From the IMG/VR virus record IMGVR_UViG_2681813261_000024: a stretch of DNA of 6,769 nucleotides; one strand, given 5' to 3'. Source of the DNA: a virus (lineage: Duplodnaviria; Heunggongvirae; Uroviricota; Caudoviricetes). The translations under genes and the position numbers were made by a program. Shown here piece after piece: positions 1 to 5,081 of the stretch. Position 1 is the first letter of the stretch; the number at the start of each line of letters is the position of its first letter. The notes below the pieces were generated by a model that was not told the DNA's origin, ran no database searches, and saw only the letters and a list, made by a program, of their open reading frames with translations.

Positions 1-33
1 CCTCAAAAACACCATCATACACTAAATCAGTAA

Positions 34-546
34 GTTGGCAGCATCACCGGGGGCGCAGACCCTGATTATGTTATCTGGGCGAAAGAAGTTCAGGGTATTA
101 ACCGTGCATGGACTTTCAGACACTGGAAAGGCACTGGAACGGTTGGCGTGATGGTGGCGACAAACGATCCGGAACGCCCGGCCCCGGATGAAAGCGTGAT
201 TAACGCAGTCAGGGACCACATCCTTCCTCTGGCACCTGTTGCCGGAAGCGGATTGTATGTATTCGGTGCCACAGAAAAAGTCATCCCGATGACGATTGCA
301 TTATCGAAAGACACACCGCAGATCAGGACTGCAATAAAAGCAGAGCTGAATGCACTGATGTTACGGGATGGTGTGCCAGAGGGGCGTATGTATCTGTCCA
401 GAATCAGTGAGGCCATCAGTTTGTCTGCTGGTGAAGTGGCCCACCGGTTAATCGTCCCTTCATCGGATATTGACCTGGGGGAGACCGAGCTTCCGGTGCT
501 CGGCGAGATCACCTGGCAGGCTTATGACCCGGCAAGGAGTAAATAA
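34..546 (+). CDS. Baseplate J-like protein (Mu gp47 / P2 gpJ family), C-terminal portion only; 5' end truncated or disrupted
   Basis: Frame-1 translation from nt 34 (VGSITGGADPDYVIWAKEVQGINRAWTF...) shows the GG..DY..WA..V.G..RAW motif typical of baseplate J proteins, recalled from memory. The first in-frame start is GTG 148, an in-frame TAA lies at 31-33, and the other two forward frames stop at 23-25 and 63-65. The stop TAA 544-546 overlaps the ATG of the next gene (TAATG), suggesting translational coupling. Confidence 0.6.
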   Translation, partial: VGSITGGADPDYVIWAKEVQGINRAWTFRHWKGTGTVGVMVATNDPERPAPDESVINAVRDHILPLAPVAGSGLYVFGATEKVIPMTIALSKDTPQIRTAIKAELNALMLRDGVPEGRMYLSRISEAISLSAGEVAHRLIVPSSDIDLGETELPVLGEITWQAYDPARSK

Positions 547-1136
547 TGGATTCGTTACAGGATGATTATACAAAGCTGCTGTACGGACTGATGCCGCCGG
601 GGCCTGCATGGTCAGATACCGACGGTGTACTTGACGGTCTGGCACCATCGCTTGTGCGTGTTCACCAGCGGGCTGATGAACTGGTGATTGAAATCGATCC
701 CGGTCAGTCCACAGAGCTGATTGAACGTTATGAAGAATTGTATGGTTTACCTGATTCCTGTTCCCCTGTCGGAACCCAGACATTACGCCAGCGTCAGCAA
801 CGTCTTGAAGCAAAAGCCAATGTGGCTGGTGGCATAAATGAGCAGTTCTTCCTGGATCAGCTTGAGGCGCTGGGATATACCGGCGTAACGATCGAACAGT
901 TCCAGCACTTGGATGCAAGCCCCGATCCGGAATGGGGAGATCGCTGGCGTTATTTCTGGCGTGTGACGTTGCCGATGGATGCCGGTGCTCAGTGGCAGAC
1001 ATGCACGGACGCCTGCAACACACCGATCCGGACGTGGGGGGATACGGTTGCGGAGTGCGTGATTAATAAATTATGTCCGTCACACACCGTCGTTTTATTT
1101 TCCTATCCAGATGAGGATGAAGATGCACAGGATTGA
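546..1136 (+). CDS. Phage baseplate/tail protein, Mu gp48 / e14 YmfQ-like (DUF2313 family, distant P2 gpI analogue)
   Basis: 196-aa ORF with an LMPPGPAW N-terminal motif and a GG....FF...LEALGY.....IEQF central motif resembling the YmfQ/gp48 family (from memory). It sits between the J-like gene and the tail fibre as in Mu-like baseplate modules, with a 1-nt start/stop overlap upstream. Confidence 0.65.
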   Translation: MDSLQDDYTKLLYGLMPPGPAWSDTDGVLDGLAPSLVRVHQRADELVIEIDPGQSTELIERYEELYGLPDSCSPVGTQTLRQRQQRLEAKANVAGGINEQFFLDQLEALGYTGVTIEQFQHLDASPDPEWGDRWRYFWRVTLPMDAGAQWQTCTDACNTPIRTWGDTVAECVINKLCPSHTVVLFSYPDEDEDAQD

Positions 1137-2163
1137 TACGCTGACTGCGGTAAAAGATAAGTTTGGTCCGGGTAAGAACGGATTTACTGACGGAAATCTT
1201 CGCACAGGACGTCTTGCTACCTGGCTGAACAGTGCCATGTGGAATGCCATTCAGGAGGAAATCTGTGGTGTCATTGAGAAGGCCGGGATAGAACTGAATA
1301 AAGAAGAACACGACCAGCTATATAAGGCTATATTATTGCTGGTGGGCGGTGCAATTAACGAAGAGGCATTGCTGATAAAAAATAACCTTTCGGATGTGGA
1401 AGACAGGGATGAGGCTGTTGAAAACCTCGGATTAAAACCCACGGTGGATAAGGCAAAAAATGCCGTTCAGCGTGATGGCGACACCATGACCGGAGAGCTG
1501 AAAATCCGTGGTGTTAATGCGCTGAGGATTTTCAACGAAGCTTTTGGCCTGATTTTTCGTCGTTCGGAAGAGTGCCTGCACCTTATTCCCACCAGTGAAG
1601 GTCAGGGGGAAAATGGCGATATTGGTCCCCTGCGCCCGTTCACCATTAATCTGCGGACGGGTGAAATATCCATGTCGCATAAAGTGTCTGTTGGCGGTGG
1701 TTCGCAGGTCAATGGTGCGCTGGGTATCGGCGTTCAGAACGCCCTGGGGGGGAATTCAATTGTTCTTGGTGATAATGACACCGGATTCAAACAGAATGGT
1801 GATGGCCTGCTGGATGTTTATGCCAATAGCGTGCATGTGTTGCGTTTTCAGAGTGGCAGTATCCAGAGTAATAAAGCTGTAAACGTTACAGGACGGGTAA
1901 CACCGTCAGACTACGGAAACTTTGATGCCCGTTACCAGCAGCGAAATGGTGGCGTGCAGGATGTGCGGTATGGTTATGAAATGTATTACACCCCCGGCAG
2001 TAACACCGTTTCGTGGACATTTCGCTCACCTTCGGGACACGGGCTGTCAGGGATATCGATATCGGATACCGGCCGTAACTCAGCGGATAACGTCAACGGC
2101 GTGTATTACCGACCGCTGCAAAAACTGATTAATGGCACCTGGTATAACGTAGCGAGTATTTAA
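1111..2163 (+). CDS. Tail fibre protein; C-terminal part resembles the P2 gpH receptor-binding region, with a distinct ~110-aa N-terminal anchoring domain
   Basis: 350-aa ORF. The C-terminus (NALGGNSIVLGDNDTGFKQNGDGLLDVYANS ... LINGTWYNVASI) closely matches the recalled P2 gpH C-terminus (NALGGSSIVLGDNDTGFKQNGDGILDVYANS ... INGTWYNVAQV). Start is ambiguous among ATG 1111, 1117 and 1123; 1123 has the best AGGA spacing. It overlaps the end of the upstream gene. Confidence 0.8.
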   Translation: MRMKMHRIDTLTAVKDKFGPGKNGFTDGNLRTGRLATWLNSAMWNAIQEEICGVIEKAGIELNKEEHDQLYKAILLLVGGAINEEALLIKNNLSDVEDRDEAVENLGLKPTVDKAKNAVQRDGDTMTGELKIRGVNALRIFNEAFGLIFRRSEECLHLIPTSEGQGENGDIGPLRPFTINLRTGEISMSHKVSVGGGSQVNGALGIGVQNALGGNSIVLGDNDTGFKQNGDGLLDVYANSVHVLRFQSGSIQSNKAVNVTGRVTPSDYGNFDARYQQRNGGVQDVRYGYEMYYTPGSNTVSWTFRSPSGHGLSGISISDTGRNSADNVNGVYYRPLQKLINGTWYNVASI

Positions 2164-2165
2164 CA

Positions 2166-2711
2166 ATGTTGCATTTAAAAAATATTACGGCAGGTAATCC
2201 GAAAACCGCGGAATAATATCAGCTGACAAAACAGTATGATGTCACCTGGCTTTTTTCGGAAGACGGCAAAAACTGGTATGAAGAACAGAAGAACTTTGCC
2301 AGTGACACCATAAAAATGGTTTACACCGGAGACGGGCGCGTGGTGTGGGTCGGTAAGGATGTGACAGGCATTGAACCCCGTAACGCCAGTGTTATTGAAG
2401 TTCCTGATATTACCGCCAACCGCCGCATTACCGCGCCGGGTTACTGGTTTTACCGCAATGATGAATTTGTCTTTGACTACAGACTCAAAGCGGAAGATGA
2501 GCGTGATGCCCTTCTGGCTCAGGTCAGTGCCCGGACAGGGGAATGGGAAGAAGACCTGCTGCTGGGGCTAATCAGCGACGAAGACCGGGAAAAACTGAAA
2601 GCGTACCGTATTTACGCGAAATCGCTGCAGGCGATGGATTTCAGCACCATCACTGATAAATCCTCATATAACGCCATTGAATGGTCCGTCTCTCCGGAAG
2701 GTTCTTCCTGA
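2166..2711 (+). pseudogene. Tail fibre assembly protein (P2 gpG / Mu gpU family) interrupted by an in-frame TAA at 2214-2216; the longest intact ORF is 2316-2711
   Basis: Translation from ATG 2166 reads [43 protein letters not shown]..., colinear with the recalled P2 gpG N-terminus ([22 protein letters not shown]...DGKNWYEE). The stop replaces the conserved Gln (CAA to TAA). The same frame continues to TGA 2709-2711, and VEVPDITANRR plus a Tfa-like C-terminus are present. Confidence 0.7.
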
Positions 2712-2734: not shown

Positions 2735-4003
2735 ATGTCTGTAGTGATATCAGGTGCGCTGACTGATGGCGCAGGCATCCCCATGTCCGGATGCCAGATT
2801 ATTCTGAAATCCCGTGTAAACACCTCAGAAGTGGTGATGCGTACCAGGGCTGATGTAGTGACCGGAAATAACGGTGAATATTCGTTTGAGGCACAGGTCG
2901 GAAAATATTGCGTGTATCTGAAACGGGACTGGCGCGACGAGTACTGTGTTGGCGACATTGCTGTATACGACGACTCAAAGCCCGGCACGCTGAATGACTT
3001 TCTGATTGCTCCTGATGAGGGCGACCTGAAACCGGATGTCGTCAAACGCTTTGAGGAAATGGTGGCGCAGGCGCAGCAGAGCGCCGGGGCCGCAGCCGGA
3101 AACGCACAGCAGACGGCGCAGGATGTGGCGGCAGCCGCAGGTTATGCCCGCGCAGCAGAGCAGGCCAAAAATGACATTGATGCTGCGCTGACCGGCACTC
3201 TGAAAACGGCTAACCATCTGTCTGAAATCGCAGCAGCAGGCGAAAAGGCACAACAGAAGTCCCGGGATAATCTGGGGCTGAAAAGTGCGGCCACGATGGA
3301 AGCACAGAGCGACATTTACGACCGGACAAAAGGCCGTCTGGCGATACCCGGCGCATTCGGCTTTGGGTGTGCTTTTCTGCCTGAAGATGTTATCCGTTTT
3401 GACACTAAGAGTGATTTCCTGGCCTGGGTAAGGAATGCGCTGCCAGGTGAATATTCCGTTGCTGGCCCCTACGACATCATCATACCCGACACACGGTTTG
3501 AAGGGGTGCTCAGCATCCGGTGGACTGATGCACGCCCTGAGACAACAGAACCGAGGTACAGAGCCAAATCCCTTACTTTTTACGGCATTAACGGCCCCAT
3601 TTATCACACCCGCTACTGCTACTGGCCCATATCCAGACTGACTGGCTGGGTGAAAATAAATATAACCACAGAAGATATTATTTACAGAATCGTGGCGAGC
3701 TCTGTCTGCAACAGATGGGGAGACCCTGACATTGGCGGGCTGATTATTGCTGCGTACCAGGGAGAAGCTGACGGTGATAAAGTCATCAGACTTGTCAGGG
3801 GGCAGTCATACAGAGGCTCACGACTGGGACCGGTGGGGATTTCAGTGCCCAGTACTCCCACCGGAACGTATATAGCATCCCCACAATTTTTCATTACGGG
3901 ATGTTCAGAGCATTCATTACCGGGGTCATATAGCGCCCTGTCCGGGGTGCCGGATGCTCATGTCTCTGGCGCAATGCCCGGGCTTTTTATTCGCACATCG
4001 TGA
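2735..4003 (+). CDS. Side tail fibre protein with lambda Stf-like N-terminal domain, Ala/Gln-rich shaft and unrecognised C-terminal domain
   Basis: 422-aa ORF. The N-terminus (MSVVISGALTDGAGIPMSGCQIILKSR...GEYSF...GKYCVYL...IAVYDDSKPGTLNDFLIA) follows the lambda Stf / StfR pattern (MAVKISGVLKDG...CTIQLKA...VYEDSQPGTLNDFL, from memory). An Ala/Gln-rich low-complexity stretch follows, then a C-terminal ~230 aa with no family I recognise. Confidence 0.75.
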   Translation: MSVVISGALTDGAGIPMSGCQIILKSRVNTSEVVMRTRADVVTGNNGEYSFEAQVGKYCVYLKRDWRDEYCVGDIAVYDDSKPGTLNDFLIAPDEGDLKPDVVKRFEEMVAQAQQSAGAAAGNAQQTAQDVAAAAGYARAAEQAKNDIDAALTGTLKTANHLSEIAAAGEKAQQKSRDNLGLKSAATMEAQSDIYDRTKGRLAIPGAFGFGCAFLPEDVIRFDTKSDFLAWVRNALPGEYSVAGPYDIIIPDTRFEGVLSIRWTDARPETTEPRYRAKSLTFYGINGPIYHTRYCYWPISRLTGWVKINITTEDIIYRIVASSVCNRWGDPDIGGLIIAAYQGEADGDKVIRLVRGQSYRGSRLGPVGISVPSTPTGTYIASPQFFITGCSEHSLPGSYSALSGVPDAHVSGAMPGLFIRTS

Positions 4004-4013
4004 GGAATGCACC

Positions 4014-4520
4014 GTGGAAATTAAAAAAATCATTAATCCCCGTTATACCGAAAGTGGCGCAGTAGACTGTGACGTTTTTTTTGACGACAGGGACCAGGCA
4101 GTCCCCTACACAGCCACCGCTGATGATGTCGCACCGACGGGTCAGCGAATCTGGCAGGAACTGCAAAGTGGCAAATGGGGTGAGATAGCCCCATTCACTG
4201 TGACACCAGAAATGCTGGAAGCGGCCAGAGAGGCCAGACGTCAGGAAATTGAAGCATGGCGCACAGAACAGGAGGCGAAGCCGTTCACGTTTGAATGGAA
4301 CGGTCGTATCTGGAATGCTGGCCCCNNNNNNNNNNNNNNNNNNGATGCCGATAATCAGCAGGTGAAACTGTCGATGCCGGAACTGGAAGAACTGGCGGCA
4401 GCAATGGTGCAGGCGCAGGTCGATCGCAACGATGAGATTTATCGCCGTCAGCGTGAAATGAAAGAGGAGCTGAGTGGTCTGGAGGATTTGGGAACAATTA
4501 GAGCGTTTGATGTTACGTAA
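4014..4520 (+). CDS. Putative tail fibre assembly/chaperone protein (non-canonical); contains an 18-N gap
   Basis: The ORF lies immediately downstream of the fibre gene in the same frame as track ORF 3954-4520. GTG 4014 is preceded by GAGGA (4002-4006) and avoids a 50-nt overlap, so it is my preferred start; ATG 3954 and 3960 are alternatives. The assignment is positional, since the sequence lacks the classic Tfa C-terminal motif. Confidence 0.45.
   Translation: MEIKKIINPRYTESGAVDCDVFFDDRDQAVPYTATADDVAPTGQRIWQELQSGKWGEIAPFTVTPEMLEAAREARRQEIEAWRTEQEAKPFTFEWNGRIWNAGPXXXXXXDADNQQVKLSMPELEELAAAMVQAQVDRNDEIYRRQREMKEELSGLEDLGTIRAFDVT
4326..4343. other. Run of 18 ambiguous bases (N), an assembly gap or masked bases inside the putative chaperone gene
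   Basis: Directly visible as n x18; the length is a multiple of 3 so the frame is preserved and the track shows XXXXXX. Confidence 0.95.
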
Positions 4521-4718: not shown

Positions 4719-5081
4719 TGGTGGAGCTGGCGGGAGTTGAACCCGCGTCCGAAATTCCTACATCCTCGGTACTACATGCTTAGTCAGTCTTTACATTCGC
4801 TTGCCAGCTGCGGACGGACACGCCACTAACAAACTAGCCTGATTAAGTTTTAACGCTTCAACCCCAGGCAGGGCTTCCACGCGATCTCTTTTGGGTTTGA
4901 CCTCTCTTGATCCCCGTCCTAAGAGCGGAGGCTAGGGAGAGAGGGCTCTAAGCAGGTTATTAAGCTGCTAAAGCGTAGTTTTCGTCGTTTGCGACTATTT
5001 TTTGCGGCTTTTTACGAGGCCAACCGCCCCTCGGCATGCACCTTGGGTTTCGCAAATCCCGTCGAATCCAGAATCAGCCCC
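4719..5081 (-). ncRNA. ssrA: tmRNA (SsrA, 10Sa RNA), 363 nt, apparently identical to the E. coli sequence
   Basis: The reverse complement begins GGGGCTGATTCTGGATTCGACGGGATTTGCGAAACCCAAGG and ends GGACGCGGGTTCAACTCCCGCCAGCTCCACCA. It contains the tag reading frame GCAAACGACGAAAACTACGCTTTAGCAGCTTAA (ANDENYALAA*), seen on the + strand as its complement at 4961-4993. Confidence 0.95.

Follow-up and report, generated by a model that had tools for sequence, protein, structure and literature searches.

Does the tail fibre assembly gene at positions 2166-2711 of a 6,769-nucleotide stretch of viral DNA (IMG/VR record IMGVR_UViG_2681813261_000024; hereafter, the window) still encode a chaperone, given that a stop codon interrupts its reading frame close to the start? 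Translation of 2166-2711 on the plus strand yields 16 residues followed by TAA at 2214-2216, which is codon 17 and the sole premature in-frame stop; about 164-165 open codons then lead up to the TGA at 2709-2711. Intact relatives of this gene encode 181 amino acids, and every intact homologue that we aligned has CAA (Gln) where the window has TAA, a difference of a single C-to-T transition. A first-pass annotation of the window had stated that a TAA replaces a conserved Gln at codon 17 and that the frame stays open from there to 2711, and the translation and the relatives with CAA bear out both statements. The first in-frame ATG, GTG or TTG past the stop in the list of open reading frames is the ATG at 2316, so that 100 nt separate the TAA from the next canonical in-frame start. 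The residual open reading frame from this codon, Met51, spans 2316-2711 on the plus strand and encodes 131 amino acids; it lacks residues 1-50 of the fibre-binding N-terminal domain, and it is annotated in Shigella sonnei Ss046 as a putative tail fibre assembly protein. Since the stop at codon 17 denies the locus an uninterrupted frame for the whole protein, we class it within the Caudo_TAP / Mu U / P2 G family as a pseudogene and not as one of its functional genes.

The assignment to this family is clear when the stop is repaired. The repaired protein scores 87.7 bits against PF02413 (Caudo_TAP; cut-off, 22.1 bits) over residues 40-178, and its residues 1-178 match the 178-position profile phrog_136 (tail fiber assembly protein) at 1.7e-59. 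A search of solved structures returned a sole match, the Mu tail fibre assembly protein U (5YVQ, E = 8e-39), in which query residues 1-158 align with chain B residues 1-164, residue 1 to residue 1. Likewise, Mu U', P1 U' and P2-type G align from residue 1 with 47-50% identity and have Gln at column 17. Both Gln17 and the start Met are kept in E. coli prophages, E. albertii, phage pPE4, Mu U, Mu U', P1 U' and P2-type G. The profile score, the colinearity from residue 1 and the position directly after the fibre gene thus all agree with membership of the family. The first-pass annotation had described a P2 gpG-like gene that is colinear with its family from ATG 2166 and had proposed an alignment to P2 gpG and Mu homologues as a check; the description is confirmed by PF02413, phrog_136, 5YVQ, Mu U', P1 U' and P2-type G, and the alignment matches from residue 1 with Gln17 kept. 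The idea that homologues start near the position corresponding to 2316 is refuted, as phrog_136, 5YVQ, Mu U', P1 U' and P2-type G all align from residue 1. An AlphaFold single-sequence model of the repaired protein had a mean pLDDT of 33 and was left unused.

E. coli FDAARGOS_944 (L001), the closest relative among complete genomes, carries an annotated 546-nt tail fiber assembly protein gene in the same place. Around the start of the gene, 180 of 181 bases are identical to the window, the sole difference being C in place of T at 2214, and the complete genes differ at 4 of 546 positions. This near-identity around codon 17 indicates that the similarity upstream of the stop is not spurious. Four more E. 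coli prophage copies encode 181 amino acids from the same ATG, all with CAA. When GTDB species representatives were scanned for the motif with either allele, only E. albertii was found, with CAA, and a scan of JGI metagenomes for the motif gave no match.

The window gene has a second derived change, at position 2685 (codon 174), where Pro174 has become Ser. All aligned E. coli relatives retain Pro174, as do Mu U', P1 U' and P2-type G. An intact 181-aa allele (P0001) that equals the window gene but for Gln17 exists publicly and shares Ser174, so the Pro174-to-Ser change is older than the nonsense mutation. Separately, a 162-aa tail fiber assembly protein from Shigella flexneri (P0004), present on 524 contigs, has a Met start that aligns with family residue 20; it may have arisen when a paralogous S. 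flexneri copy independently lost its N terminus.

We considered whether the stop is an error of sequencing or assembly in one record whose true genome has CAA, as the first-pass annotation had allowed. The record is indeed a draft with a run of N at 4326-4343, and part of the tail module recurs at another site in the genome. The same stop is found, however, wherever this version of the locus has been sequenced. The exact 131-aa open reading frame is in the databases as AAZ89357.1, putative tail fiber assembly protein [Shigella sonnei Ss046], an annotation of the truncated frame that dates from a 2005 deposit, and as UniRef100_Q3YYQ5 (n = 14, Shigella); the longest contig with this frame measures 4,825,265 bases. 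Looking up this frame in Logan gave 10 contigs from 10 sequencing runs, each separately assembled, and all 10 read GAA TAA TAT. Ten complete or near-complete chromosomes, sampled by looking up the neighbouring fibre 2 protein, have a tail fibre assembly gene (tfa) identical to that of the window at 546 of 546 positions, TAA included. Among IMG/VR contigs with the motif, TAA is present in 3 of 11 and CAA in 8 of 11. The lesion is thus reproduced in more than 20 independent assemblies (10 + 10 + 3), which excludes an error in one record; such an error has next to no probability. The TAA is a genuine allele, present in the S. sonnei-type genomes that were sampled.

The allele also has a restricted distribution. 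A 63-base query centred on the stop has no perfect match in 5,426 complete genomes labelled E. coli, the best matches differing by one base. The TAA allele is present in every sampled complete genome with the Shigella sonnei-type locus and was found only in that type, although its frequency across S. sonnei lineages is that of a sample. The comparison with E. coli genomes that had been suggested as a check on strain specificity therefore places the TAA in the S. sonnei-type version only.

The repeated part of the module is a second remnant (L053, 7980-11730, and L054), present in the same genomes as the window-type locus and about 90 kb away from it. It contains an IS66-truncated fibre 2 (388 aa), a DUF4376 gene and, on the opposite strand, an ipaH effector gene (LRR plus NEL), which occupies the place that ssrA has in the window; in the E. 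coli/EIEC relatives L001-L003, ipaH likewise comes directly after DUF4376. No tfa sequence was found in the ipaH-adjacent remnant. A collapsed repeat could therefore not have produced the T at 2214, and the candidate source of an intact tfa paralogue acting in trans is rejected on the same ground.

The 18-N run at 4326-4343 corresponds to 75 nt in every complete genome and every read-set contig. The ssrA-side and ipaH-adjacent remnants are 97.8% identical before the gap and 94.4% identical after it. Because the two remnants cease to be nearly identical at this point, the run has the appearance of a scaffolding gap where a repeat ends. In two short-read contigs (L007 and L048), the copy with TAA crosses into the ipaH context at the N gap. 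One of these, the IMG/VR contig L048 (6,768 nt), was considered as an equivalent of the window and rejected, as it diverges past window position 4344 into the ipaH context.

The window covers the right-hand end of a prophage that has a Mu-like tail and lies alongside ssrA in Shigella sonnei. Its first 48 bases (1-48, minus strand) are the end of an IS1 element that sits within the baseplate J gene, a sequence with tens of thousands of matches across E. coli genomes; E. coli prophage relatives match the window only from base 49 on. Positions 49-546 (plus strand) encode the C-terminal fragment of baseplate J (Mu gp47-like; PF04865 profile positions 132-255 of 255). An intact open reading frame for a baseplate wedge protein of the Mu gp48 / YmfQ family follows at 546-1136 (plus strand; PF10076 at 2.3e-25), and its product has exact matches on at least 1000 contigs named Shigella. 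Tail fibre 1, the partner of the chaperone, occupies 1123-2163 (plus strand; 346 aa, phrog_6859). Downstream of the pseudogene, an intact open reading frame at 2735-4003 (plus strand) encodes tail fibre 2, a 422-aa phage_tail_N protein (PF08400 at 2.4e-63) with exact matches on 674 contigs named S. sonnei. The gene for a DUF4376 protein lies 3' of fibre 2, at 3954-4520 (plus strand), and is interrupted by the N gap. The prophage end abuts the 3' end of ssrA, the tmRNA gene that ARAGORN places at 4719-5081 on the minus strand, beyond which the window holds smpB and then the ratA/rnfH genes. The junction of DUF4376, ssrA and smpB is also present in 17 E. coli genomes, which indicates that the ssrA-side position is natural for this phage type. 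A literature search for a description of the ssrA-side S. sonnei prophage returned nothing relevant.

Complete chromosomes confirm the identity of the element at the left edge. The genes adjoining base 1 of the window match the IS1 InsA and DDE_Tnp_IS1 families, and the IS1 separates the N-terminal 224 codons of baseplate J from the window in complete genomes. Reading the junctions against an uninterrupted baseplate J copy gives a clean insertion with a target-site duplication of 10 bases, GGGGGCGCAG, at window positions 49-58. Farther upstream, beyond the window, the same prophage has a second IS1, with the tape-measure gene on one side and the DNA-circularisation (Mu N-like) gene on the other (L027, 1411-2108, and corresponding places in the other loci with called IS1 genes). 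Two IS1 insertions thus accompany the stop codon as further lesions in the same element, and the splitting of baseplate J makes the tail module non-functional independently of that codon. The module is nevertheless degraded unevenly: fibre 1, gp48, fibre 2 and DUF4376 are still intact open reading frames.

The fibre gene itself had been placed at 1111-2163. The fibre is confirmed, whereas its start is most likely the ATG at 1123: positions 1-346 of phrog_6859 correspond to residues 5-350 of the open reading frame from 1111, gene calls in most of the listed complete genomes give a fibre 1 of 346 aa, and the RefSeq start in FDAARGOS_944 is placed likewise. From ATG 1123, the fibre gene overlaps the gp48 stop by 14 nt. 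Compared with the fibre of FDAARGOS_944, 34 nt in the window (1857-1890) replace 202 nt (L001 4747-4948) in frame, between flanks that are 98% identical, giving 346 aa in place of 402 aa. This length difference probably reflects variation in repeat units of the fibre shaft. At the other end of the prophage region, the match of two chromosomes (L028 and L032) to the window ends at 4756, approximately 38 nt inside the ssrA 3' end, and from 12080 on these two carry another element with an integrase; the arrangement suggests tandem use of the ssrA attachment site.

The order of the lesions can be read from close relatives. Two contigs with the intact P0001 allele, L024 and L026, share the identical junction of IS1 and baseplate J while keeping CAA, and across 3,141 bases L026 departs from the window at no more than 2, one of them position 2214. 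Thus, the IS1 insertion came first and the nonsense mutation later. The stop had been taken as a possible sign of early decay of the tail module; decay is supported by the two IS1 elements and the split baseplate J, but it is not early, the IS1 being older than the TAA. In two other chromosomes, L017 and L018, the ssrA-side remnant is present too, but its tfa is intact, with an insertion sequence in fibre 2 and another replacing baseplate J. These differing lesions indicate that the orthologous prophage decays by different routes in different lineages.

Given two fibre cassettes side by side, the chaperone might also have been lost adaptively, fibre 2 and DUF4376 having taken over while cassette 1 (fibre 1 and its chaperone) is being discarded. 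The open reading frames of cassette 2 are intact, and a further copy of cassette 2 lies next to ipaH elsewhere in the genome, as an adaptive loss would allow. That further copy of fibre 2 is itself truncated by an insertion sequence, however, and the fibre 1 frame is itself intact. Both cassettes occur together with an intact 181-aa chaperone in relatives and in the isolated phage record PP818812.1, which argues that two fibres are the normal state of this tail type. Moreover, it is fibre 2, not cassette 1, that carries an insertion sequence in L017, L018 and L024, and with baseplate J split by IS1 neither cassette would be usable on a particle. We therefore regard an adaptive loss as highly unlikely, and the earlier suggestion that cassette 2 superseded cassette 1 finds no support in intact relatives that hold both.

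Whether any product could still be made from 2166-2711 depends on where translation would begin. The fibre 1 stop codon (2161-2163) ends 2 nt ahead of ATG 2166, an arrangement also seen in relatives. Shine-Dalgarno scores are -3.0 kcal/mol for ATG 2166, -3.5 kcal/mol for CTG 2223, from which some annotations call a 162-aa product, and -2.3 kcal/mol for ATG 2316; against a window-wide median of -3.3 kcal/mol, none of the three has a match above background. Because ATG 2166 lacks a Shine-Dalgarno match and sits 2 nt past the fibre 1 stop, the chaperone gene is probably translated by coupling to that stop.

A shortened chaperone that still folds fibre 1 would have to start at ATG 2316 (131 aa) or at CTG 2223 (162 aa). 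CTG is a very poor initiator codon in E. coli, and neither codon is preceded by a Shine-Dalgarno sequence better than background. In support of a shortened product, 165 codons remain open past the stop and annotators call both the 131-aa and the 162-aa open reading frames. According to a published account of Mu Tfa, the N-terminal domain binds the fibre and the C-terminal helices mediate trimerisation (PMC9608196), and the C-terminal part would be retained. The form from Met51, however, lacks residues 1-50, and with them half of the N-terminal domain, the block that the family conserves best and 11 residues of the Pfam domain, which starts at residue 40. That the frame is still open reflects how recent the mutation is, the intact allele being one base away, and with baseplate J split no tail could be assembled in any case. 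A working short chaperone is therefore very unlikely, and the truncation from ATG 2316 that the first-pass annotation had offered as a way out is unsupported, its Shine-Dalgarno score being at background.

Readthrough or recoding of the stop, whether programmed or through a suppressor tRNA, would restore the full-length protein, and the open downstream frame, but nothing else, speaks for it. A recoding site should be conserved; instead, the stop is conserved in no homologue, CAA being present in every intact one examined. TAA followed by T is an efficient termination context in E. coli, and ARAGORN finds no tRNA gene in the window, only the tmRNA gene. The probability of this route is close to nil, and the earlier proposal of readthrough has no backing among the homologues. 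On balance, 2166-2711 is unlikely to yield a functional chaperone, and we would expect none, even if low-level reinitiation at ATG 2316 may occur.

Together, these observations lead us to conclude, with high confidence, that 2166-2711 is a chaperone pseudogene of a defective prophage with a Mu-like tail in S. sonnei, and that it arose after the IS1 insertion and persisted as presumably neutral decay. A C-to-T transition converted the conserved Gln17 codon from CAA to TAA, so that coupled translation of the chaperone gene would now end after 16 residues. With the following start 100 nt on and lacking a ribosome-binding site, no functional chaperone would be produced. As IS1 had already split baseplate J, the nonsense mutation would have carried no further cost and could have persisted as neutral decay; the change itself thus appears to have been neutral. 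It is quite improbable that the 131-aa fragment is instead made at a low level and acts on the fibres of other prophages, or that loss of the chaperone was selected in expanding S. sonnei.

The biological weight of this pseudogene is small, as it is one among hundreds in S. sonnei and belongs to a prophage tail that was already dead. Annotators should flag as pseudogenes the 131-aa and 162-aa tail fibre assembly proteins of S. sonnei, which are remnants of the 181-aa gene. The locus also offers a worked example of how prophage decay can be ordered, with an IS1 insertion followed by a point mutation, and the SNP at 2214 could serve as a lineage marker dating from after the IS1 expansion.

Compared with Mu U (TfaMu, 5YVQ), Mu U', P1 U/U' and P2 gpG, the repaired protein is alike from residue 1 at 43-50% identity, and it shares the N-terminal block M-x-HLKNI..NPKT.EQYQLTK with its Mu U, P1 U' and P2 G kin. 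In these phages, as here, the gene lies directly behind a tail fibre gene. The window gene differs from its Mu, P1 and P2 kin in the TAA at codon 17, which makes the full protein impossible, and in lying outside any invertible G/C segment; its C-terminal 20-25 residues are unlike those of Mu and P2. The intact orthologues in E. coli prophages (such as WP_000902847.1 of FDAARGOS_944, and E. coli W) and in the phage record PP818812.1 have the same layout of fibre 1, tfa, fibre 2 and DUF4376, with about 90-99% nucleotide identity to the window and the same 546 nt from the same start. Unlike the window, they have CAA at codon 17, Pro174 and an uninterrupted baseplate J.

The closest parallel to the process is pseudogene formation in Shigella at large. 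Hawkey et al. 2020 (PMC7373316) reported that an insertion sequence, a nonsense mutation or a frameshift inactivates 719 CDS (14%) in one or more S. sonnei genomes, insertion sequences accounting for roughly half of these, and that IS1 expanded rapidly on the branch to S. sonnei lineages II and III. There, as in the prophage described here, nonsense mutations stand beside IS1 insertions in non-essential genes. We see no substantive difference between that process and the decay of this locus, which is one instance of it. The tfa pseudogene is ordinary Shigella genome degradation, a well-described process, and fits known biology.
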